Source: an uncultured Planctomycetales bacterium
Lineage (GTDB): Bacteria > Planctomycetota > PLA2 > JAEUHO01
Length of the DNA stretch: 47,764 nucleotides
Assembly: GCA_964586025.1 (NCBI GenBank)
Contig: CAZPGF010000004.1
Span: forward strand, 1 to 47,764
Direction of reading: 5' to 3'
Position numbers and translations under genes: made by a program. The notes under the pieces are model-generated. The model had not been told where the DNA came from. It ran no database searches and saw only the letters and a program-made list of their open reading frames with translations. Positions 7,649 through 47,764 of the stretch are shown here, in pieces. Numbering within the stretch: position 1 is the stretch's first letter; each line of letters starts with the position of its first letter.

Positions 7649-8584
7649 TCAGGCTGTGGATTCCGCGAGCGACTCGACGATGCGCGCGATTCCGGTCCGC
7701 AGCTCGGTGGACGGCGTCCAACCCAGCCTGATCCGTGCCTCCGAGATGTCCGCGAGCGAGTCGCGGACGTCACCGACACGAGCCGGAACATGGCGGCTCG
7801 ACGGCTCCACCCCGAGCTCGTCGGCCACGATCGAAAGCAACTCCCGGATCGAAACGCGCCGCCCACCGCCGAGATTCATCGGGCCCTCGGTCGCGCCCGG
7901 CGCCGTGGCCGCGCGGATCAACGCGTCGACCACGTCCTCGACGTAGGTGAAGTCCCTCGTCTGCTCGCCGTCTCCGTTCACGGTCGCCGGTTGACCGCGC
8001 CGGAGGGCGTCGACGAACAGCGGGACCACCGCAGCGTAGGCGGAACGCGGACTCTGTCGCGGTCCGTACACGTTGAAGTAGCGCAGGCTGACCGTCTCCA
8101 GCCCGTAGGTCGCCTGGAAGGCCGTCAGATAGGCCTCGCCGGCCGCCTTCGACGCCGCGTAGGGGCTGCGGGGCGAGAGGGGCATCGCCTCCCGCTTCGG
8201 CAGGGCAGGCGTGTCGCCGTAGACGGAGGAGGAGGACGCGAAGACGACCCGCCGGCAGCCGGCGTCGCGGGCGGCGACGAGCAGGCGGAGCGTCCCAAGG
8301 ACGTTGACCTCGGTCACCTCCTCCGGGCGCTCGACGCTGCGGGCGACGGCCGCGAGCGCGGCCTGGTGGTAGACGACCTCGCACCCGGCGACCGCGCGCG
8401 CGATCGCCGTGGGATCCCGCAGGTCGCCCTCGACCAGGTCGATCGACGAGCGCGCGGCGGCGAGGTTCTCGCGCAGGCCGGTGCTGAAGTCGTCCAGGAC
8501 GGACACGTCGTGACCGTCGGCGAGCAGCCGATCGACGAGCGTGGAACCGATGAATCCGGCTCCGCCGGTCACGCAGACGCGCAT
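7649..8584 (-). CDS. NAD-dependent nucleotide-sugar epimerase/dehydratase (SDR; WbpP-like 4-epimerase)
   Basis: MRVCVTGGAGFIGS, ASSSSVYG, YAASK, LRYFNVYGPRQ, GDGEQTRDFTYV. Confidence 0.95.
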   Translation of the reverse strand: MRVCVTGGAGFIGSTLVDRLLADGHDVSVLDDFSTGLRENLAAARSSIDLVEGDLRDPTAIARAVAGCEVVYHQAALAAVARSVERPEEVTEVNVLGTLRLLVAARDAGCRRVVFASSSSVYGDTPALPKREAMPLSPRSPYAASKAAGEAYLTAFQATYGLETVSLRYFNVYGPRQSPRSAYAAVVPLFVDALRRGQPATVNGDGEQTRDFTYVEDVVDALIRAATAPGATEGPMNLGGGRRVSIRELLSIVADELGVEPSSRHVPARVGDVRDSLADISEARIRLGWTPSTELRTGIARIVESLAESTA

Positions 8585-8667
8585 GGGGTCCTGGTCCTCT
8601 CGGGGGTGGCGGAAGCCGGGCGATCGGCGTGCCGAACCCATCAAATTTGCATGGGCGAGGGCCCGCA

Positions 8668-8683
8668 TGCAAGGCAGGTGCCA
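8668..8683 (-). promoter_or_regulatory. Sigma-54 (-24/-12) promoter for the leftward EPS operon
   Basis: Minus strand reads TGGCACCTGCCTTGCA, matching TGGCAC-N5-TTGCW; about 85 bp upstream of the epimerase ATG at 8584. Confidence 0.8.
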
Positions 8684-8951
8684 TCCGCTCCGTCCGCCGA
8701 GAAGGCGTCGTGGACCGGACCGCCGTTCGCGCGGCCGGGCGGATGGCGGTAGGGCCGGGCGGGCCATCGGTCGCAACCCGAAGCCCGCACGGCGCCTCCA
8801 CGCCCTCCGATCCGGGCCGTCGTGCCCGTCCTATCGGACGACTGACGTGCCGTGATAAAGGCTGGATGTCCGTCGCACCGAAGGTCGATGTGGCAGTGGC
8901 AGGACACCGCGGCCCCCTGCTGTCGATCGGAAAGGACATGAACCCCGGGCC

Positions 8952-10538
8952 GTGAGCGACCTCCCGCCCCCCCCTCCGCCCCCCCGACCGGCCGCCGCAG
9001 CCGGCGGGTCCGGCACGCCGCCGTCGCCGCGTGGGGTGCTCGCCCGCAACGCGACGTGGAACGCCGCGTCGTACGTCCTCCACGCGCTCGTCCTGCTCGT
9101 CCTGAGCCCGTTCGTGGTCGAGCGACTCGGCCACGACCTGTTCGGCGTCTGGGTCATCATCAACACGCTGACCGGCTACCTGAACGTCGCCGACTTCGGG
9201 ATCCGACCGGCCATCGTCCACTTCGTCGCGCGGCACCACGCTCGCGACGAGATCGACGAGATCGAACGGCACGTCCACGGTGCGTTCGTCACGCTGGCGA
9301 TCGGCGGCGTGCTCGTGCTCCTCGCGACGCTCGTCGTCGCGCCGCGCCTGGGACCGTGGTTCGGCGTGGCGCCCGGACAGAGCGACGCCGCTGGCACGGC
9401 GCTGTGGATCACCGGGCTCTGCCTCGCCCTGAACCTTCCCCTCAATGCGTTCACGGCCGTGCTGATCGGCCGACAGCGATTCGACCTGACCTGCCGCATC
9501 GATCTCCTCTCGCTCGTCGCGAGCACCGCCGGCATCGTCCTCGTGCTCGCGCTCGACGGCGGGATCGTCGCGCTCGCCCTCGTGATCGGTCTGGTCGAGT
9601 TCGGCGAGATGCTGTGGAAGACGCGCCTCGCGTTCCGTGAGCAGCCGGGGCTGACGTTCTGGCCCCGACGCGCGTCGCGCCGAGCGGTGCGCGGGCTGCT
9701 CCAGTACGGCGGCTTCAACCTGATCGTGACCGCGTCCCTGCTGTTGTCCGACAAGACCGACGCGATCGTCGTCGGCGGCGCTCTCGGCGCGGCGTTCGTC
9801 ACCCTGTTCGACCGGGCCGCGAAGTTGCCGGTCCACGCCCGAACGCTCGTGTTCCAGGTCGGTCGCGTGCTGATGCCCGAACTCGGTGCGCGCGACGCGG
9901 TCGGTGATCGGGCCGGCGTGGTGCGGTTGCTGCAGGGATCCTCGCGCCGGATGCTGCTCGCGGCGACGCCCCTCCTGGCGTGGCTCGTGATCCTGGGCGG
10001 AGCATTCCTCGAGACCTGGATGCACGGCGATCGCTCGTTCCGCCTCGAGGCCGGTCCGAGCCTCGTCGTGCTCACCTTCGCGGCCCTGTTCCCGATCAGC
10101 AGCTACCCGCTCGTGATGGCGCACCAGGGCACCGGCCGCATGAAGGCGCTCGCGCTGCTCTCACTCGGCGAGGGACTCGCGAACCTCGGGCTGAGCCTCT
10201 GGTGGGTCGCCGGCCACGGGCTGGTCGGCGTCGCGTTCGGAACGCTGGTCCCCGCGGCCCTCGTGCACGGCGTCGTGCTGCCGTGGTGGAACGGACGTCG
10301 CCTCGGCTTCTCGCTCGCGACGTGGTGGGCGCAGACGCTCGCCCTGCCTCTGGTCGCGGGCGCCGTGTCGGTCGGCGTGCTGTCGCTCGCGTTCGATCAC
10401 TCCGCGAGCCACGGCTGGCTCGCCCTCGTGGGCGGTGGCGCGCTCTCGGTGGCCGTCGTCGCGGCGATCGCTTTCGCCGCGCCGCCCGGCGTCGGGCTGC
10501 GACGCGCCCGCGCGGTGGCGCAGGGGGCCGCGCCGTGA
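8952..10538 (+). CDS. Wzx-type oligosaccharide flippase
   Basis: ARNATWNAASY, LGHDLFGVW, ADFGIRPAIVHFVA; many TM helices; first gene of the rightward EPS operon. Confidence 0.85.
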   Translation: MSDLPPPPPPPRPAAAAGGSGTPPSPRGVLARNATWNAASYVLHALVLLVLSPFVVERLGHDLFGVWVIINTLTGYLNVADFGIRPAIVHFVARHHARDEIDEIERHVHGAFVTLAIGGVLVLLATLVVAPRLGPWFGVAPGQSDAAGTALWITGLCLALNLPLNAFTAVLIGRQRFDLTCRIDLLSLVASTAGIVLVLALDGGIVALALVIGLVEFGEMLWKTRLAFREQPGLTFWPRRASRRAVRGLLQYGGFNLIVTASLLLSDKTDAIVVGGALGAAFVTLFDRAAKLPVHARTLVFQVGRVLMPELGARDAVGDRAGVVRLLQGSSRRMLLAATPLLAWLVILGGAFLETWMHGDRSFRLEAGPSLVVLTFAALFPISSYPLVMAHQGTGRMKALALLSLGEGLANLGLSLWWVAGHGLVGVAFGTLVPAALVHGVVLPWWNGRRLGFSLATWWAQTLALPLVAGAVSVGVLSLAFDHSASHGWLALVGGGALSVAVVAAIAFAAPPGVGLRRARAVAQGAAP

Positions 10539-11905
10539 ACGTCTCCGCGTCCGAGCGCACCGCGCGCGCGGCTCTCGAGCGCGCCGATCGCCCCTGGGAG
10601 CCGCGTCTCCGCAGCGGCTTCTTCGCGTTCGCGAGGACGCACTTCGGCGGCCTCTCGCTTCACTTCTGGGTGCTGATGATCTACCTGTTCCTCGCGACGA
10701 GTTACGTCGACGAGTACCTGACCTCGCTCGAGGCGGTGCGCCCGCGCTCGTTCCTGGGCCTGTTCGCGCTGCTCGTCGCGATCGGGCGCTCGATCCAGGA
10801 GGGCCTGGCGAAACGCAAGCCGCTTGCGATCGAGCGGCCGCAGACGTTCTGGCTGGCGGCGTTCGTCGTGTCGTGCACGCTGTCGGCGTTCTTCGCGTTC
10901 GAGCCGGCGCTCGCGCAGCAGGCGCACATCGACCACGGGACGATGATGCTCTCCTACTTCCTCCTGGTCAGCATCGTCAGGACGCGGCGGGAGCTGCTGC
11001 TGACGCTCCTCGTGATGTGCGCGGGCGTCGGGACGTTCCTGGTGCTGTCGTTCATCGAGTGGCGGGCGGGACGCATGGACTACGCGCAGGGCGTCGTCCG
11101 CATGATGGGCGTTGGCTGGTCGAACGCGGACCCGAACAGTTTCGGCGCGACGATCGTGTTCACGCTGCCGCTCGTTCTCTGGGCCGGCGTGACGACGCGC
11201 TCGTGGTTCATTCGGCTCTGCTCCCTCGCCTACGCCGTGCTCGCGGTCTACTCGGTCTTCATGTCGTCCAGCCGCAGCGCCCTCGTGCTGACGGTGCTGA
11301 CGGGGTTGTTCACGCTGACGATCCTGCGCCGAGGTTGGCCCCGCTGGATCGGCGCGGCGCTCGTGGTCGTCGCGGGTGTGACGATGGCCGCTACGCTCAG
11401 CGAGTCCCAGAAGAAGCGCATCGCCAGCATCCTCGAAGGCGATACGTACACGCGCGAGTCGTCCACCGCGGACCGCATCGAGGGGTATCGGGTGGCGTTC
11501 CGGATCCTCGCCGACAACCCGGTCCTGGGCGTCGGCCCGGGCAACTGGAGCGCATACCGCGTGCGGCGGGTGGACGGACGGACGCTGCTCCCCCACAGCC
11601 TGACGGGGCAGATCGTCGCGACGCGCGGCATCCTGGGCACCGTGACCTTCCTCGGCTTCCTCTTCACGTCGATCACCTTTGCCGTGCGGCAGATGGCGCG
11701 GCGGCGCAACCCGCGAACCGCCTGGGATCGCGCGGTCGGGACGCTCTGCTGGACCTGCCTGTTCACGCTCGGACTGATGCTCGTGTCCGGACTCGCCGCG
11801 CACAACCTGGAGCGCGCCAACTGGTATTGGATCCCCGCGGTCATGGTGATCGCGGTCGCCGCGCGCAACGAGGACTGGGACATCCTCCGGGAGACGTCGA
11901 TATGA
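10535..11905 (+). CDS. O-antigen ligase / Wzy polymerase family membrane protein
   Basis: GTG 10535 overlaps the flippase stop; NADPNSFG, SSSRSAL, ADNPVLGVGPGNW, PHS; multi-TM. Confidence 0.85.
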   Translation: MNVSASERTARAALERADRPWEPRLRSGFFAFARTHFGGLSLHFWVLMIYLFLATSYVDEYLTSLEAVRPRSFLGLFALLVAIGRSIQEGLAKRKPLAIERPQTFWLAAFVVSCTLSAFFAFEPALAQQAHIDHGTMMLSYFLLVSIVRTRRELLLTLLVMCAGVGTFLVLSFIEWRAGRMDYAQGVVRMMGVGWSNADPNSFGATIVFTLPLVLWAGVTTRSWFIRLCSLAYAVLAVYSVFMSSSRSALVLTVLTGLFTLTILRRGWPRWIGAALVVVAGVTMAATLSESQKKRIASILEGDTYTRESSTADRIEGYRVAFRILADNPVLGVGPGNWSAYRVRRVDGRTLLPHSLTGQIVATRGILGTVTFLGFLFTSITFAVRQMARRRNPRTAWDRAVGTLCWTCLFTLGLMLVSGLAAHNLERANWYWIPAVMVIAVAARNEDWDILRETSI

Positions 11906-12825
11906 ACGGTTCACCGCGCCATGCGTTGACGGTGGACGTCGAGGACTGGTACCAGGTCAGCGCGTTCGAGCACGTCGTTTCCCGCGATCGGTGGGACCAG
12001 TACGAGAGCCGCGTCGTCCCGAACACGGAGCGGTTGCTCGACCTCTTCGCCCGACGCGGCGTCCGCGCGACGTTCTTCACGCTCGGCTGGGTCGCCGAGC
12101 GCCATCCGACGTTGATCGCACGCCTCGTCGAGGCCGGTCACGAGGTCGCGAGCCACGGCAGCGTTCACCGGCTCGTGCACGGACTCACGCCGGAGACCTT
12201 CCGAGAGGACCTCGCCCGGGCGCGTCGCGCGCTGGAAGCCGCCGCGCCGATCCGAATCCGCTCGTTCCGCGCGCCGTCGTTCTCGCTGACGCGCGAATCC
12301 ACGTGGGCGTACGACGTACTCCGCGACGAGGGCTACACCGTGTCGAGCAGTGTGTTCCCCGTCCGTCACGATCGGTACGGCATCCCGGACTTCCCGCGCG
12401 GACCGGTCCGCGTCGAGGACGAGAAGGGGGCGTGGATCTGGGAGTTGCCGATGACGACGTGGCGCGTCGCCGGGCGCAACGTGCCGGCGAGCGGCGGTGG
12501 GTGGCTGCGCCTCCTGCCCCTCGGCGTGATGCGCGCCGGTCTCCGCCAGGCCGAGGCCGACGGACGCCCGGGCATGCTCTACCTCCATCCTTGGGAGGTA
12601 GACCCGGACCAACCGCGGCTGCGCGAGGCCTCGCGACGGGCGCGCTTCCGGCACACGGTCAACCTCGCGCGGACCGCCGGGCGCATCGACCGCCTGCTCG
12701 ACGAATTCTCGTTCGGTGCCGTGGCGGACGTCGTGGCCGGCCTCGAGGCCGGTCGGTTCGCGGGCCCCGTGGAACGCCGTGTGCTCACCGGGCGAGCCGC
12801 CGCCGCGCCGACGGCTTCTCGATGA
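11902..12825 (+). CDS. Polysaccharide deacetylase, XrtA/PEP-CTERM-system type
   Basis: HALTVDVEDWYQVSAFE, RATFFTLGWVAE, HEVASHG, FRAPSFS, YLHPWEVDPDQPR; ATGA overlap at 11902. Confidence 0.9.
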   Translation: MNGSPRHALTVDVEDWYQVSAFEHVVSRDRWDQYESRVVPNTERLLDLFARRGVRATFFTLGWVAERHPTLIARLVEAGHEVASHGSVHRLVHGLTPETFREDLARARRALEAAAPIRIRSFRAPSFSLTRESTWAYDVLRDEGYTVSSSVFPVRHDRYGIPDFPRGPVRVEDEKGAWIWELPMTTWRVAGRNVPASGGGWLRLLPLGVMRAGLRQAEADGRPGMLYLHPWEVDPDQPRLREASRRARFRHTVNLARTAGRIDRLLDEFSFGAVADVVAGLEAGRFAGPVERRVLTGRAAAAPTASR

Positions 12826-15254: not shown

Positions 15255-16414
15255 TGCCGCCCGAACCCGCGCCGGTGCGCGTCGTCCACGTGCGGAACAG
15301 CGACCGGGTCAGCGGTCCCGAACGCCTGCTCATCGACCAGGCGCGGCACGCGAGCCCGGCCATCGAGGTCCACGTCGCGGTCTTCGCGCCGCCGGGACGG
15401 CCGTCGGCGTTCCTCGACATGGCCGAACGCGAGGGCGTGCGCGTCCTTCGCATCGAACAGCGCTCCTCGTACGACCCGCGCCTCGTCGGACGCCTGCACG
15501 AGCGGCTCACCGCCGTCGGCGCGGACCTCGTCGTCACGCACGACTACAAGGCGAACTTCGTCGGGCGCCGCGCGGCCCGCCTCGGGGCGATTCCGTGGAT
15601 CGCGGTGGCGCACGGCTACACGGCCGAGGACCTGAAGGTGCGAGTGTTCGAGGCGCTCGATCGCCGCGCGTTGCGTCGTGCCGATGCCGTGGTCGTCGTC
15701 TCGGAGGCGCTGCGCGAGCGACTTCGACGCGGCGGCGTCCCGGAGGACCGCCTCCACGGCGTCGACAACGGGATCGACGTCGCGCGCGTGATCGAGGCGG
15801 CGGAGGCGAGTCGAGACCGAGCGCGTGCCGCGCTCGGCGCGAGCGAGGGGGACGCTCTCGTCGTCGCACTCGGACGCACCAGCCCCGAGAAGGGTCAGGA
15901 CCTGTTGCTGGAGGCCTTTGCGCGACTCGCCGAATCGCGTCCGGCCCTGCGTCTCGCTCTCGTCGGCGACGGCCCCCTGCTCGAAGGACTGGCCCGGCGC
16001 GCGGATGCGGCGGGCCTCCGCGAACGGGTCGCGCTGCCCGGGTGGCGCGACGACGGCCCCGCGTGCCTGGCCGTCGCGGACGTGGTCGTGATGCCGAGTC
16101 GATCCGAGGGGCTGCCGATCGCGTTGCTCGAGGCGCTGGCCGTCGGAACGCCGGTCGTCGTCACCGATGTCGGCGCGATGGCGGACGTCGTCGAGGGCGG
16201 AAGCGCCGGACTGGTCGTGCCGCCGAACGACGTCGCCGCGCTCGCCGACGCGATCGCCGCGACCCTCGACTTCCCTGGTGCCGCACGTGCGCGCGCCGCG
16301 CTCGGTCGTCGCCGCGTCGAGACCCGCTACGGCACGCGCGCCCAGGCGGCGCGCCTCGAGGCCCTCTACCTCTCGGTCGTCGCACGATCCCGCCGCCGGT
16401 ATCCGTTCAGGTGA
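15254..16414 (+). CDS. Glycosyltransferase family 4 (GT-B)
   Basis: TGATG overlap; SGPER, VVTHDYK, VDNGID, LGRTSPEKGQD, VMPSRSEGLPIALLEALAVGTPVVVTDVG. Confidence 0.92.
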   Translation: MPPEPAPVRVVHVRNSDRVSGPERLLIDQARHASPAIEVHVAVFAPPGRPSAFLDMAEREGVRVLRIEQRSSYDPRLVGRLHERLTAVGADLVVTHDYKANFVGRRAARLGAIPWIAVAHGYTAEDLKVRVFEALDRRALRRADAVVVVSEALRERLRRGGVPEDRLHGVDNGIDVARVIEAAEASRDRARAALGASEGDALVVALGRTSPEKGQDLLLEAFARLAESRPALRLALVGDGPLLEGLARRADAAGLRERVALPGWRDDGPACLAVADVVVMPSRSEGLPIALLEALAVGTPVVVTDVGAMADVVEGGSAGLVVPPNDVAALADAIAATLDFPGAARARAALGRRRVETRYGTRAQAARLEALYLSVVARSRRRYPFR

Positions 16415-45000: not shown

Positions 45001-45471
45001 ATGACCCGTCGCACATGGACCGGACGACATCTCGACGTGACCTTCGACGCCGAGGTCTGCATCCACGCGGCCGAGTGCCTGCGGCGCCTGCCGCAGGTCT
45101 TCGACACACGCCGCAGGCCGTGGATCCTGCCGGACGCCGCCTTGCCCGACGCCGTGCGCGAAGCCGTGGCCCACTGCCCGAGCGGCGCCTTGGCGATCGT
45201 CGAGAAGTCCGCGCAGGCGGCGGCGGAAGGCCCGCCGCCCGCGGACGCCCCGGCGACGACGCCGGTCGTCGTCGAGATTCCCGGTCACGGCCCCCTGCGC
45301 GTGCGCGGTGGGCCGGTGCGCGTCGTCGCGGCGGACGGCACGGTGCTGCGCGAGAGCGACCGATTCTCCCTCTGCGGCTGCGGTCGCTCCGCGACCATCC
45401 CCTTCTGCGACGGCACCCACAAGACCCCCGATCCGCGAAGCCGTTCGTTCCCAGGGTCAGAGACCCCCTGA
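45001..45471 (+). CDS. Divergent 4Fe-4S (YjdI-like) domain fused to a CDGSH Fe-S domain
   Basis: CIHAAEC...CPSGAL; LCGCGRSATIPFCDGTH; stop TGA at 45469-45471 lies inside an IS-end motif. Confidence 0.88.
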   Translation: MTRRTWTGRHLDVTFDAEVCIHAAECLRRLPQVFDTRRRPWILPDAALPDAVREAVAHCPSGALAIVEKSAQAAAEGPPPADAPATTPVVVEIPGHGPLRVRGGPVRVVAADGTVLRESDRFSLCGCGRSATIPFCDGTHKTPDPRSRSFPGSETP

Positions 45472-45479
45472 ACGGATAC
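45463..45479 (-). repeat. IS66-type end, right end of a leftward unit
   Basis: Reverse complement GTATCCGTTCAGGGGGT, 16/17 identical to 47710-47726. Confidence 0.75.
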
Positions 45480-45537
45480 GGGAGTTGGTAACCGTTCAGC
45501 CCTAATTCTGGCGGAACTATCAACCGACTGACGGGGT

Positions 45538-47040
45538 ATGGCCAAGCAACGGCTCTCCCTAAAAGAGCGGTTCGAGCAGATCGAGGCGCGTCTGCGCACC
45601 ACCGAGCGGAAACTCGAAGCCTCCGAGCGTCGCAGGTGCCACCTCGAAGCGAACCGCGCTAATCTCACCCGCGAGAACAAGCGCCTGATGCAACACGTCG
45701 AGATCCTCCAGGAGAAGGTGCGTGAACTCACGGCGCGGTTGAACCAGGATTCGTCGAACTCCTCGAAGCCGCCGTCCTCCGACGTGCCCTGGAGGCAACG
45801 CCGCAAGCAGAAGCCCACGGGTCGAAGGTCCGGCGGCCAGCCAGGTCGAGAGGGCAAGACCCGCAAGCCACTACCTCCCGAAGAGGTGGATCGCACGATC
45901 CCGGTCATGCCGGAGCGGTGCGCGGCGTGTCGCTCGACGCTTCGGCCCGAGGACGTGGCCGGGGAACCGTTTCGTCATCAGGTCATCGAGATTTCTCCCG
46001 TCGTTGCCGAGGTCGTGGAGTACGTCCTGCACGCGCTCAAGTGTAGCCGCTGCGGCACGATCACGACGGCCGACCTGCCCGACGGCGTGCCCACGGGCTG
46101 CGTCGGCCCCCGGCTCCAGGCGATCCTCGCCCTCTTCACCGGACGCTGCCACCTGTCGCGCCGCTAGGCCGGTGACCTGGCGGTGGCGCTCTTCGGCGAG
46201 AAGGCGGAGGTGTCGCTCGGTACGATCGCCAACCTGGAGCAGCGCACGAGCGAGGCCCTCAAGCCCGCCTACGACGAGGCGCTGTACGCCATCCAGAACG
46301 CCGAGATCGTCCACTGCGACGAGACCGGATGGCGTGAGAACAACAGGAAGGCGTGGCTCTGGGGCGCGGTCACGCCGATGCTCAAAGTGTTCCGCATCGA
46401 CCCACGGCGCAACCGGGAGGCGTTCCGCAAACTGCTCTTCACCTTCGTGGGCTACCTCATCACGGACAGGTTTTCCGTGTACCGCATTCACGATCTGAAG
46501 AAACGTCAACCCTGCTGGGCGCACCTGCTCCGGAACTTTCTGGGACTGGAGGAACGAGGAGGCAGGGCTCGAGGTCTCGGGGTCACGGGGCAGAGGATCG
46601 TGAAGGCCGTGTTCCGCGAATGGTATCGCTTCCGAGAAGGCGAGATCACGCGGCGGGTCCTTCGGCGCAGGTTGAAACCGGTCCGCAAGCGGCTCGAACG
46701 GCTGCTGCGTCTTCACGTCAGCAACCCCGTTCCCGCCGCCCGCAAGATCGCGAAGGACCTGCTGGAGTACGGCGAGGCGCTGTGGACGTTCGCCCGGGTC
46801 GAGGGCGTCGAGCCCACGAACAACGCAGCTGAGCGTGCGGTGCGGAAGGGCGTGCTCTGGCGCAAGGGATCGTTCGGCTCGCAGAGCGCTGCGGGCTCCC
46901 GCTTCGCCGAGCGGATGCTCGCGGTCAGCGAGAGCCTGCGAGCGCAGGGGCGGTCGATCCTGGAGTTCCTTGTTGCCGCGATTCACTCGAAGGCATCCGG
47001 CCACTACCCGCCGTCGCTGTTGCCTGCCGACTCTGCTTGA
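45538..47040 (+). pseudogene. tnpC: IS66 transposase TnpC with an in-frame TAG at 46165-46167
   Basis: Coiled coil, DSSNSSKPPSSD, Zn ribbon CAAC/CSRC, HCDETGW, ITDR, CWAHLLR, EPTNNAAERAVR; both track ORFs share one frame. Confidence 0.9.
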
Positions 47041-47055
47041 GAGCGAGAGCCCCAT

Positions 47056-47340
47056 CTAACAGCGCTGGCGGTTCCACGCCTCTCCAACCGTCGCTCGCGT
47101 AGCGCACCACCCCAGCGGCAGATCCGCTAGAGATCCGATCGACGAGTCCAGTTCGAGAATCGTCTGGAGTCCGACGACACGCGCATCAAGCTCTTGCCCA
47201 GGGGCGCCGTTCCGGCTGTGGAACTGCCAAGCGCCGTCGTCGGCATCGTGTGATACGTAGACAATCGGCAATCCGCGATCGACGATGTCTGCGCTCGTCA
47301 GCACGGCGACGTTCGGGGGATCGACGAAGGGCCAGTTCAC
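47056..47340 (-). CDS. Candidate immunity protein (Imm33/DUF2185-like)
   Basis: YVSHDADDGAWQF...LADLPLGWCA; GTG start overlaps the toxin stop (GTGA) with GGAG upstream. Confidence 0.65.
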   Translation of the reverse strand: MNWPFVDPPNVAVLTSADIVDRGLPIVYVSHDADDGAWQFHSRNGAPGQELDARVVGLQTILELDSSIGSLADLPLGWCATRATVGEAWNRQRC

Positions 47341-47699
47341 TTCGGCTCTCCAGATGGAGGAGTGGTAGGAGTAGAGTCCGGCGGAAGTTCGGGCATCTTA
47401 TCACCCTTGGCGAGGTTCCCAGCACGGGAACGCACTTCGGCGTTACTGAAGCTGTTCTCGCCGCCCTTGGACTTCGGAACGACGTGGTCAACGTGCGCCT
47501 CATTGTCAGGCGGCCGCCCACCCTTCTCATGCCTCTGCGGCCGGACGAGCGCCTCCCCAGTCCTGTCGTCGCGGATCACGCCGCCGTTGCGCGCTTCGTT
47601 CTCCGCGAGGATTCTCCGCTTCTGAGCTTGCGTGAAGTCCTTCTTCGGTCCGACGGACGGATGATCTTCGAGATGCGAGTACGGCCCCTCTGAACGCTT
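47337..47699 (-). pseudogene. Orphan polymorphic-toxin C-terminal HNH nuclease (Rhs-type tip), 5'-truncated
   Basis: Manual translation KRSEGPYSHLEDHPSVGPKKDFTQAQKRRILAENEARNGGVIRDD...HVDHVVPKSKGGENSFSNAEVRSRAGNLAKGDK; the frame closes upstream at TGA 47718-47720 with no ATG. Confidence 0.75.
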
Positions 47700-47709
47700 A
47701 CCAGGCGTT

Positions 47710-47726
47710 GTAACCGTTCAGGGGGT
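47710..47726 (+). repeat. IS66-type left end of a further unit running off the window
   Basis: GTAACCGTTCAGGGGGT, starting 8 bp after the right end at 47701. Confidence 0.75.
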
Positions 47727-47764
47727 AAAGGCCGCGCCGAGGCATGCCGACCTATCGTCATGTG

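Follow-up and report, generated by a model that had tools for sequence, protein, structure and literature searches.

What arranges transposon ends head to tail with a gap of exactly 8 bp between them? The question is raised by two junctions near the right-hand end of the window, by which we mean the whole stretch of DNA analysed (47,764 nucleotides, an entire contig). The first junction, at 45468-45499, reads CTGAACGGATAC-gggagttg-GTAACCGTTCAG, and the second, at 47690-47721, reads CTGAACGCTTAC-caggcgtt-GTAACCGTTCAG. When this 12-N8-12 pattern was searched for with up to 3 mismatches, these were the only two sites found in the window, and none was found in 100 dinucleotide-preserving shuffles. 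With up to 2 mismatches allowed, the junction 12-mer was found at 9 places in the window against 1.47 expected. The two junctions given in a preliminary description of this DNA are thus confirmed, exact in layout and absent from the shuffles; the interpretation offered there is, overall, partly supported. Recomputation also agreed with that description on the pairing of the ends: the outer ends, ACCCCCTGAACGGATAC and GTAACCGTTCAGGGGGT, are complementary at 16/17 positions, and those of the inner unit (unit B) at 11/12, with divergence beyond. The spacers gggagttg and caggcgtt are indeed unequal, with mismatches at 6 of the 8 positions. The features of the region are as follows.

45463-45479, minus strand: solo IS-end relic ACCCCCTGAACGGATAC, 17 bp (end search), with no transposase to its left
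45480-45487, no strand: 8-bp spacer gggagttg of junction 1
45488-47701, plus strand: unit B, an IS66-family transposon with cargo, 2,214 bp (end and Pfam analysis)
45488-45499, plus strand: left inverted repeat of B, GTAACCGTTCAG, homologous to the left end GTAACCGCTCACccctaattcc of the related unit L048
45538-47040, plus strand: IS66-family transposase pseudogene, 500 codons with one in-frame TAG (Pfam, ORF list)
47056-47340, minus strand: 94-aa immunity-like ORF, whose GTG start overlaps the TGA stop of the toxin (GTGA)
47337-47717, minus strand: start-less HNH toxin C-terminal domain, matching HNH families (Pfam)
47690-47701, plus strand: right inverted repeat of B, CTGAACGCTTAC (end search)
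47702-47709, no strand: 8-bp spacer caggcgtt of junction 2; cgtctgtc is its equivalent in the MAG copy
47710-47764, plus strand: start of unit C, left repeat GTAACCGTTCAGGGGGT and leader, 55 bp present before the contig end cuts it

Because the window spans the whole contig, junction 2 lies close to a contig end (43-74 bp from it). Extension past 47764 was attempted by exact-protein look-ups of the CDGSH and transposase ORFs, which gave no match, by a look-up of the FMN reductase, which returned a 1,085-bp contig only, and by two 12-N8-12 scans of genome contigs, which matched other genomes only. An independent MAG contig of 579 kb (L047) carries a counterpart of unit B with 92.7% nucleotide identity, followed in the contig interior by a junction of the same type. 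This argues against an assembly chimera, an origin that the preliminary description had allowed for.

Unit B consists, in order, of a left repeat, a transposase, an immunity gene and a toxin domain, both encoded on the other strand, and a right repeat. Its inverted repeats begin with GTAA(G/C)CG, GTAACCGTTCAG agreeing with the reverse complement of the other end, GTAAGCGTTCAG, at 11/12 positions. The segment 45538-46164 matches zf-IS66 (PF13005, 28.3 bits against a cut-off of 27.3) and DUF6444 (PF20042) and the segment 46183-47037 matches DDE_Tnp_IS66 (PF03050, E=9.4e-36); together with an N-terminal coiled coil, the two IS66 domains are those by which the family is recognized. The earlier proposal of IS66-type ends is therefore borne out both by the GTAA starts and by the DUF6444, zf-IS66 and DDE_Tnp_IS66 domains between them. 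The transposase starts only 50 bp after the left repeat, and the unit gave no TnpB_IS66 match in a Pfam search, which places it in the single-ORF subgroup rather than with the canonical three-ORF IS66 elements (tnpA/tnpB/tnpC). Close relatives of the transposase are named ISGob4 or ISCysp4 by NCBI. The two ORFs of the pseudogene are in a common reading frame, and the nonsense TAG at 46165-46167 (GAG>TAG), where L047 has GAG and L048 has Glu, deprives B of the intact transposase ORF expected of an autonomous IS. No direct 8-bp target duplication surrounds B, its flanks being gggagttg and caggcgtt. On our best reading, unit B is an old, decayed member of an array: its transposase bears a nonsense mutation, and its cargo is an HNH toxin and a 94-aa immunity gene.

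The toxin frame is open across the right repeat, which encodes K-R-S, and across the spacer. Its first possible start is a GTG at codon 41, within the domain. A protein search with the HNH domain gave 1,277 representative proteins at E<=0.001; among the best 150 of these 1,277, the match ends at the C-terminus in the large majority, and alignments of the homologues begin at query residues 3-5. The domain forms the extreme C-terminus of large and varied proteins of up to 2,313 aa, as is typical of polymorphic toxins, and sequence in the homologues of 2,088 and 2,313 aa was judged by eye, rather than by domain scan, to be Rhs/YD repeats. The 94-aa ORF has no Pfam family. A homolog with 61% identity (E=3e-40) lies directly after an HNH-toxin homolog at a locus that bears no IS ends (L097), and the position of the ORF, directly downstream of the toxin, is that of a cognate immunity gene; it is here called a putative immunity gene. 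No pre-toxin peptide motif (VENN, PxxxxDPxGL) was seen, the right repeat, read as K/T-R-S, being the only shared pre-toxin sequence.

On the minus strand, the relic to the left of B reads GTATCCGTTCAGGGGGT and resembles the head of a unit, that is, a right repeat followed by Gly-linker codons. Read in the toxin frame it gives IRSGGL*, to be compared with the K/T-R-S-G-G heads of units in relatives; by this resemblance it may be what remains of the head of an older unit, since deleted. A Fer4_19/CDGSH gene at 45001-45471 ends within the relic, its TGA stop occupying 45469-45471. On the other side, the start of unit C aligns with the left ends of two units in the MAG array that carry transposases, U2 and U4, and a minus-strand TGA at 47718-47720, inside the left repeat of C and in phase, caps the toxin frame of B. 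In our best reading, the relic is downstream, and unit C upstream, relative to the reading direction of B's toxin. A giant unit of 29 kb bounded by GTATCCGTTCAG at 16399 (plus strand) and 45479 (minus strand) was considered and rejected, the interval having no GC break, matching 8-mers or transposase. This pair of sequences is an unexplained coincidence.

The relatives of unit B, found mostly in Planctomycetota MAGs, show how general this design is. In 23 of 24 cargo units no stop interrupts the toxin frame across the right repeat, and the phase there is the same, xGT-A[A/C]G-CGT-TCA, read as K/T-R-S. The open run through the repeat is 92-177 codons in these 23 units (median about 134), as against a median of 27 codons in plain relatives of 1.5 kb, and a capping TGA stands 6 codons upstream at every 8-bp junction. 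The first unit of L090, in which a TNT domain is out of phase, counts against our best reading. The cargo differs from unit to unit, as the preliminary description had supposed without recognising it as toxin C-terminal domains with immunity genes, and Pfam assigns the toxins to several families: HNH, WHH, Endonuclea_NS_2, TNT, NTase and DUF6883. Endonuclea_NS_2 is accompanied by a YezG-like immunity gene, DUF6883 is paired with DUF4926, and Imm26 follows a toxin ORF that Pfam does not assign; the ORFs downstream in the WHH/Colicin-DNase, TNT and NTP_transf_2 units had no significant Pfam immunity match. Cargo toxins with internal starts may be expressed independently; one such is the 117-aa NTase of L094, for which gene callers use an internal start. 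Perfect 8-bp target duplications, named in the preliminary description as an IS66 trait, were found around B-like units of 2.2-2.4 kb in L048 (ttcggacg), L056 (gaaccgac), L093/L094 (gaccgccg) and L096 (gaattgcg). We do not claim a conserved mimic of the ends at the insertion sites of solo cargo units, where the flanks match at 3-8 of 12 positions by eye. In plain Solirubrobacterales relatives, a CTGCAAA motif occupies the register of such a mimic.

Further end-8 bp-end junctions, and further cargo-bearing units, occur in relatives; the preliminary description had named their absence as a refutation of its reading. Tabulation of the end-to-end spacing in the genome collection, with 0-30 bp allowed, gave a peak at exactly 8 bp (25 of 45 matches); in these, as in both window junctions, a right end abuts a left end across a spacer of the length of the target duplication. 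In arrays of relatives, different units stand head to tail, often with a single 8-mer at every junction and outer flank (taccactg x3, catccctt x2, ctgcgcgc x2, tcggagtc x2, catctgcc x3), and plain IS arrays repeat ACTTTCGT (x3) and GGGTTTTC (x3). The same 8-mer at all junctions and at the outer flank is the pattern expected if newcomers insert into the 8 bp that adjoin a resident end. Transposases are truncated or dead in units lying further from the large gene, giving a gradient of decay. Junction orientation in plain relatives was counted against this reading, since 18 junctions join same-strand units and 7 join opposite ones, a bias and not exclusivity. The idea that units are added beside existing ends is accordingly favoured by the 8-bp geometry and the shared 8-mers of relatives, and the window departs from it in having spacers that differ; simple repeated insertion alone cannot explain the window array. 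For these unequal spacers we propose recombination between copies or movement of a block of several units. The comparison with an integron held for the cassettes with different cargo and failed for the mechanism, each unit having its own transposase, repeats and duplication; neither an attC-like site nor a shared integrase gene was seen.

At three loci an upstream ORF continues in frame into the toxin of the first unit. In L050/L087 the resulting fusion is an ORF of 1,320 codons, annotated by NCBI as a protein of 1,266 aa; in L095, an Illumina assembly, 1,074 upstream codons are joined in what is called as a 929-aa gene; and in L091 there are 282 upstream codons and then, beyond one stop, a contiguous same-frame ORF of 1,411 aa. 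A Pro-rich or transmembrane linker precedes each fusion (L087, L091, L095). Against this it must be counted that fusion to a long ORF is seen in only 3 of the roughly 10 terminal or solo units; with chance at about 1 in 6, this number does not by itself reach significance. None of the three upstream proteins has a Pfam match or a recognisable secretion domain, their bodies show no mutual BLASTP similarity, and related-locus and protein searches with the fused upstream protein returned only the query itself. That they form one toxin family was rejected on these results, by which they are also not proven secreted toxins. Any large upstream gene belonging to the window array would be beyond the contig end, a further point counted against our best reading.

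That reading, to which we give a probability of about 0.62, is that the region forms the downstream end of an array in which single-ORF IS66-family transposons, each with a polymorphic-toxin cassette, stand in tandem, insert beside one another's ends and swap toxin tips. A unit would land in the 8 bp beside a resident unit's right repeat or, alternatively, within the 3' part of a gene for a large secreted toxin and in frame with it; in either case the 8 bp would be duplicated. The upstream gene would then read, with phase kept, into the toxin domain of the newcomer, and the displaced toxin would be capped by the TGA in the newcomer's left repeat. The displaced unit would become a silent orphan that still supplies immunity, and repeated rounds would build an end-8 bp-end array in which older tips are pushed downstream. 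The anatomy of the units, the kind of cargo, the target duplications, the preference for 8-bp spacing and the in-frame fusions of relatives are directly observed. Both the targeting of insertion to resident ends and the tip-swapping function are what we infer from the arrangement of these sequences; the relatives suggest stacking of transposons that swaps the killing domains of large toxin genes. The stronger proposition, that this IS66 lineage is a dedicated vehicle for such exchange, with the right repeat as in-frame linker, the left repeat as stop signal, the 8-bp targeting as keeper of phase and the older tips archived with their immunity genes, is tentative, and we would put it slightly below an even chance.

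The arrays might instead be ordinary pile-ups of IS elements with a selfish passenger, either an addiction module or a free immunity gene, the fusions being accidental and the frame a relic of capture. Terminal or solo units are mostly without a long-ORF fusion, some toxins have usable internal starts, and toxin-antitoxin pairs are documented in Tn3-family transposons (PMC7157771). Cargo-free plain relatives form the same arrays, so toxins are not needed for array building. Such a passenger accords poorly with the window toxin, whose first start is 40 residues into a domain conserved from residue 4 and which, with its start inside the conserved HNH domain, cannot be made alone. Nor does it account for the phase that 23 of 24 units keep although their toxin folds are unrelated, for cargo that consists of secreted-toxin tips (C-termini of large proteins) rather than classical type II toxins, or for three long in-frame fusions that each follow a Pro-rich or transmembrane linker; we consider it unlikely.

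Homologous recombination, gene conversion or unequal crossing-over of dispersed IS copies, with no end-targeted transposition, would explain the unequal spacers of the window, of the MAG array (cgtctgtc/catccctt) and of L007, which has three different 8-mers with inverted flanks, and some recombination is needed to account for these. L006, a dimer of two 1,642-bp units with identical ends, also fits. As the sole cause it is improbable: recombination cannot make an exact 8-bp gap between different units, and cannot put one 8-mer around units with 72-95% divergent transposases and unrelated cargo; the sharp spacing peak, moreover, falls at the length of the target duplication. The least credible account, to which we attach very little weight, is that the junctions are either palindromes native to the site, of the terminator- or REP-like hairpin kind, or chimeras of IS copies made in assembly. 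Each junction is a 12-8-12 palindrome and junction 2 is within 75 bp of a contig end, as this would have it, but the arms are identical to the ends of transposase-bearing, target-duplicated units at dozens of loci, on which ground a native hairpin, REP or terminator target was rejected. The array architecture is, moreover, found in the interior of contigs, both Illumina ones and long-read ones of 0.3-2.7 Mb, and the passage from B to a next unit recurs in the independent MAG at 92.7% identity.

Returning to the array of tip-swapping transposons, its units most resemble the single-ORF (ISBst12-like) IS66 elements, with which they share DDE_Tnp_IS66, zf-IS66, the N-terminal coiled coil, GTAA(G/C)CG repeats and 8-bp duplications. 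They differ in their toxin/immunity cargo (about 0.65-0.85 kb, lying after the transposase stop and before the right repeat), in an ORF open through that repeat, in 8-bp-spaced arrays and, in the window, in a transposase pseudogene. IS30, IS21 and IS911 form tandem (IS)2 dimers and insert preferentially next to resident ends. The abutted ends and the spacer of target-duplication length are alike in these; here the family is another, the partners are often different elements, and the arrays are stable and reach at least 4 units in length. Engineered transposons of the TnphoA type have a frame open through the transposon end and yield hybrid proteins after landing in frame; the units described here would be a natural case, with toxin and immunity gene as payload and phase apparently kept by a re-used 8-bp site.

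Arrays of orphan toxin-CT/immunity pairs are found in CDI and Rhs systems (PMC3150448), and displacement of effectors in T6SS (PMC5361080). In these too, start-less tips and their immunity genes lie behind a full-length toxin gene and newer tips displace older, but the tips swap by homologous recombination at a pre-toxin motif (VENN, DPxGL), whereas here there is one transposon per tip and the 'motif' is an inverted repeat read as K/T-R-S. Diversification of polymorphic toxin loci has been ascribed to homologous recombination of orphan tips, with mobile elements noted merely as neighbours (Poole 2011, PMC3150448; Pandoomain preprint); here the tip, the immunity gene and the moving enzyme make up one transposable unit with an end open to translation. 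The arrangement was not found in the incompletely covered literature on IS66 tandem or abutted ends, on ISBst12, on IS66 in connection with polymorphic toxins or on IS-borne in-frame toxin cassettes, which is weak evidence. If the stronger proposition of a dedicated vehicle is true, polymorphic-toxin diversification would here be driven by transposase and not by recombination, in a natural counterpart of engineered fusion transposons. In-frame swapping would provide a mechanism for rapid change of toxin repertoire and horizontal spread of toxin/immunity pairs, would mean that IS66-type transposases can target resident ends with 8-bp precision, and would offer a natural template for programmable C-terminal protein-fusion transposons. 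If swapping is false, this is still a clear case of IS66 elements with toxin/immunity passengers in fixed-spacing stacks. IS26 translocatable units and integrons are likewise linear cargo arrays built by a recombinase and grown beside an existing copy or site. IS26 units, however, have a single IS copy in common and produce no target duplication, and in integrons one tyrosine integrase acts on attI and attC sites, whereas each unit here comes with a pair of inverted repeats, a DDE transposase of its own and an 8-bp duplication.

The preliminary description had placed two junctions (IS end, 8-bp spacer, IS end) around one IS66-type unit, unit B, and both were recovered exactly at those positions. 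The features concerned are the following:

45468-45499, junction 1, CTGAACGGATAC-gggagttg-GTAACCGTTCAG
45488-47701, unit B, 2,214 bp
45538-47040, plus strand, IS66-family transposase, 500 codons, with Pfam DUF6444, zf-IS66 and DDE_Tnp_IS66
47690-47721, junction 2, CTGAACGCTTAC-caggcgtt-GTAACCGTTCAG
stop at 47337, minus strand, ORF with an HNH nuclease domain (Pfam HNH_4, HNH_5, HNH)
minus strand, 94-aa ORF whose GTG start overlaps the stop of the HNH toxin

When up to three mismatches were allowed, the 12-N8-12 pattern was found at these two sites only in the window and at none in 100 shuffles. The other observations made earlier also held: the two spacers differ, and the outer ends pair better (complementarity of the 17-mers, 16/17) than do the ends of unit B itself (11/12, divergent beyond). 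The right junction lies just inside the contig end because the window is the entire 47,764-bp contig. The assignment of the ends to IS66 was borne out: by its transposase, its ends and the length of the duplication, the element belongs to the single-ORF branch of this family. The window copy has neither a matching target duplication nor an intact transposase; the gene is a pseudogene, since a single in-frame TAG (46165-46167) stands where close relatives have GAG (Glu). The GC content is 66% in the transposase and 63% in the cargo of unit B, as against 71% for the contig.

The genes to the left of 45479 are of ordinary kinds (Fer4_19/CDGSH, a peroxiredoxin-like ORF, an FMN reductase), and the left outer "end" is an isolated 17-mer. 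Read in the toxin frame it gives I-R-S-G-G-L-stop, similar to the K/T-R-S-G-G heads of units elsewhere, and it is probably what remains of an earlier unit that was deleted. An exact copy of the 12-mer of this end, GTATCCGTTCAG (the reverse complement of 45468-45479), occurs in inverted orientation 29 kb away (16399-16410, plus strand), at the stop of an ORF. No GC break, matching 8-mers or nearby transposase were found around it, and it may be a chance occurrence or another solo end.

In unit B, 661 bp separate the transposase stop from the right terminal repeat, versus about 50 bp in relatives that carry no toxin, and this segment holds the two minus-strand ORFs. The HNH frame is open from inside the left repeat of the next unit, via the spacer and the right repeat of B, to its stop; its earliest possible start is a GTG at codon 41, and the domain is conserved in homologs from residue 4 on, as GPYSHLEDHPSVGPGKDFT. 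In an exhaustive HMMER search, the large majority of the best 150 of 1,277 matches had the domain at the very C-terminus of proteins of 119 to 2,313 aa; judged by eye rather than by domain scan, some of the longer proteins contain Rhs/YD repeats. Among the matches listed, alignments start at query residues 3-5, directly following the K-R-S that the right repeat encodes. A homolog of the 94-aa ORF (61% identical, E=3e-40) lies directly 3' of an HNH homolog in a locus without IS ends (L097). From the C-terminal position of the domain and this pairing, the cargo is therefore predicted to be the C-terminal domain (tip) of a polymorphic toxin with a putative immunity gene, and it has the features of such a pair; the usual pre-toxin recombination motif is absent from it. 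On L097, a 4-kb contig, the pair sits in a conventional orphan-type array that also holds an Imm30 gene and other start-less fragments, which suggests that the IS captured a pre-existing cassette.

The transposases closest to that of unit B come from Planctomycetota MAGs (72-95% amino-acid identity). One MAG contig (L047 and L049 joined) carries a copy of B with 92.7% identity over a stretch that starts at window position 45653, within the transposase gene, and extends across cargo and right repeat into the following unit; its spacer is a different one, cgtctgtc. This array has at least four units, one of them with a nested IS21: two large IstB-/IstA-like ORFs, read by eye without a domain search, lie at about 8473-11011, within a unit 5.3 kb long.

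As had been predicted, related genomes hold cargo-bearing units whose cargo differs from unit to unit. In these loci and others reached via the protein database, 23 of 24 units have one layout, with a minus-strand ORF open for 92-177 codons and passing through the right repeat in the same phase; the exception, the first unit of L090, has a one-base shift in a nanopore assembly. Plain elements, which serve as the control for this open frame, have no toxin, and the frame that crosses their right repeat is short (median 27 codons). The toxin domains vary. Those with Pfam-supported partners are Endonuclea_NS_2 with a YezG-like immunity gene, DUF6883 with DUF4926, and a Pfam-unassigned toxin ORF with Imm26; the ORFs downstream of the WHH/Colicin-DNase, TNT and NTP_transf_2 toxins gave no significant Pfam immunity match, and several other toxin ORFs had no Pfam match. 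Perfect 8-bp duplications surround whole units, cargo included, in four cases (L048, L056, L093/L094 and L096), and 8-mers are re-used within arrays (taccactg and catctgcc three times; catccctt, ctgcgcgc and tcggagtc twice). At every 8-bp junction the left repeat of the neighbor supplies a TGA in the phase of the toxin, six codons upstream of the right repeat. A sub-lineage in L089 (12081-12112) has ends GTAACCGCACAG, with TGT in place of the in-phase TGA, and a called DUF6883 gene there (11710-12225) reads across the junction from the neighboring unit. Directly beside a cargo-bearing unit in L088, and on the strand opposite to it, 11499-12310 holds another toxin cassette at the same hotspot, with a deaminase toxin (SCP1201-like) and an Imm1 gene.

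The search for further end-8 bp-end junctions was also successful. The 12-N8-12 scan found seven loci, all in Solirubrobacterales MAGs, with IS66-like units of 1.5-1.64 kb. In L001 and L006 one 8-mer occurs alike at the left flank, junction and right flank; in L003 it is shared by left flank and junction, the right flank being cut short by the locus end. With any end-to-end gap of 0-30 bp allowed, there were 45 loci in several phyla, of which 25 had a gap of 8 bp, five of 7 bp and three of 9 bp, the rest being scattered. Junctions with transposase genes on both sides were same-strand in 18 cases and opposite in seven. The end-8 bp-end junction is a general property of this IS group.

Several arrays of plain relatives (L001-L046 and L059-L086, mostly Solirubrobacterales) lie just downstream of putative tRNA 3' ends, judged by eye rather than by tRNA scan. 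Of 117 non-junction flanks, 23 have CTGCAAA, followed by a T-rich 8-mer, at precisely the 12-nt register that a neighboring IS end would occupy; this may be an IS-end mimic that serves as a natural target. MITE-like mini-units of 109-160 bp with the same ends as the units also lie 8 bp from IS ends, with 8-mers re-used (L060 197-356, reverse-complemented relative to the stored locus; L062 312-420; L078 65-207; all on the strand carrying the junction pattern).

The structure of the arrays suggests that an IS66-type transposase, inserting with an 8-bp stagger, would strongly favor positions at which one of its cuts falls exactly at the edge of a resident end, and the 8-bp spacing and re-used 8-mer would follow from this preference. 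Targeting of inverted repeats is known for IS30 and offers a parallel. Insertion in the 8 bp immediately upstream of a resident unit would keep the reading frame, because all units share phase across the right repeat; the toxin of the newcomer would thus be in frame with whatever had read into the old one, and its left repeat would end translation ahead of the old toxin. The outcome would be that the first tip is expressed and is followed by a series of silent orphan tips, all accompanied by their immunity genes: the expected layout is the classic polymorphic-toxin one, made by transposition instead.

At three loci an upstream ORF continues in phase into a solo unit or the first unit of an array. 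The L050/L087 fusion is an ORF of 1,320 codons with coding-type GC3 and a proline-rich linker up to the junction, annotated at NCBI as one protein of 1,266 aa. L095, an Illumina assembly, has 1,074 open codons upstream (called gene, 929 aa). The shorter L091 fusion has 282 codons upstream and, beyond one stop, a contiguous same-frame ORF of 1,411 aa, on a contig with 3x coverage. The L095 fusion depends on 16 bp (11656-11671), where tcggcttg stands twice in tandem immediately past the fused unit's right repeat; a unit that was excised could have left this footprint. In L087 the transposase is partly or wholly lost in units farther from the large gene, and in both the window and the MAG array the most distal unit is the decayed one.

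The cargo might instead be a selfish passenger, of the addiction or immunity type, on an IS that forms stacks. Some toxins are perhaps expressed from internal starts; fused terminal or solo units number only three of about ten, a count that alone is not significantly greater than 1 in 6; and the fused upstream proteins of the three loci showed no recognizable domains and no mutual similarity. Spacers are unequal in the window, in some of the MAG array and in L007; to account for this, one has to assume that copies recombined or that blocks of several units moved. As these points do not fit tip replacement by insertion, the selfish-passenger explanation keeps appreciable weight. We give a substantial chance to a dedicated tip-swapping system.

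In the literature on polymorphic-toxin loci, mobile elements, IS66 included, are noted only as neighbors, and our search brought up no account of toxin tips that are carried by an IS and read through an inverted repeat. Of the integron-like array proposed in the preliminary description, the stacking of units with different cargo was seen in relatives, and the likeness to integrons, as to (IS)2 junctions and IS26 arrays, is one of analogy only.
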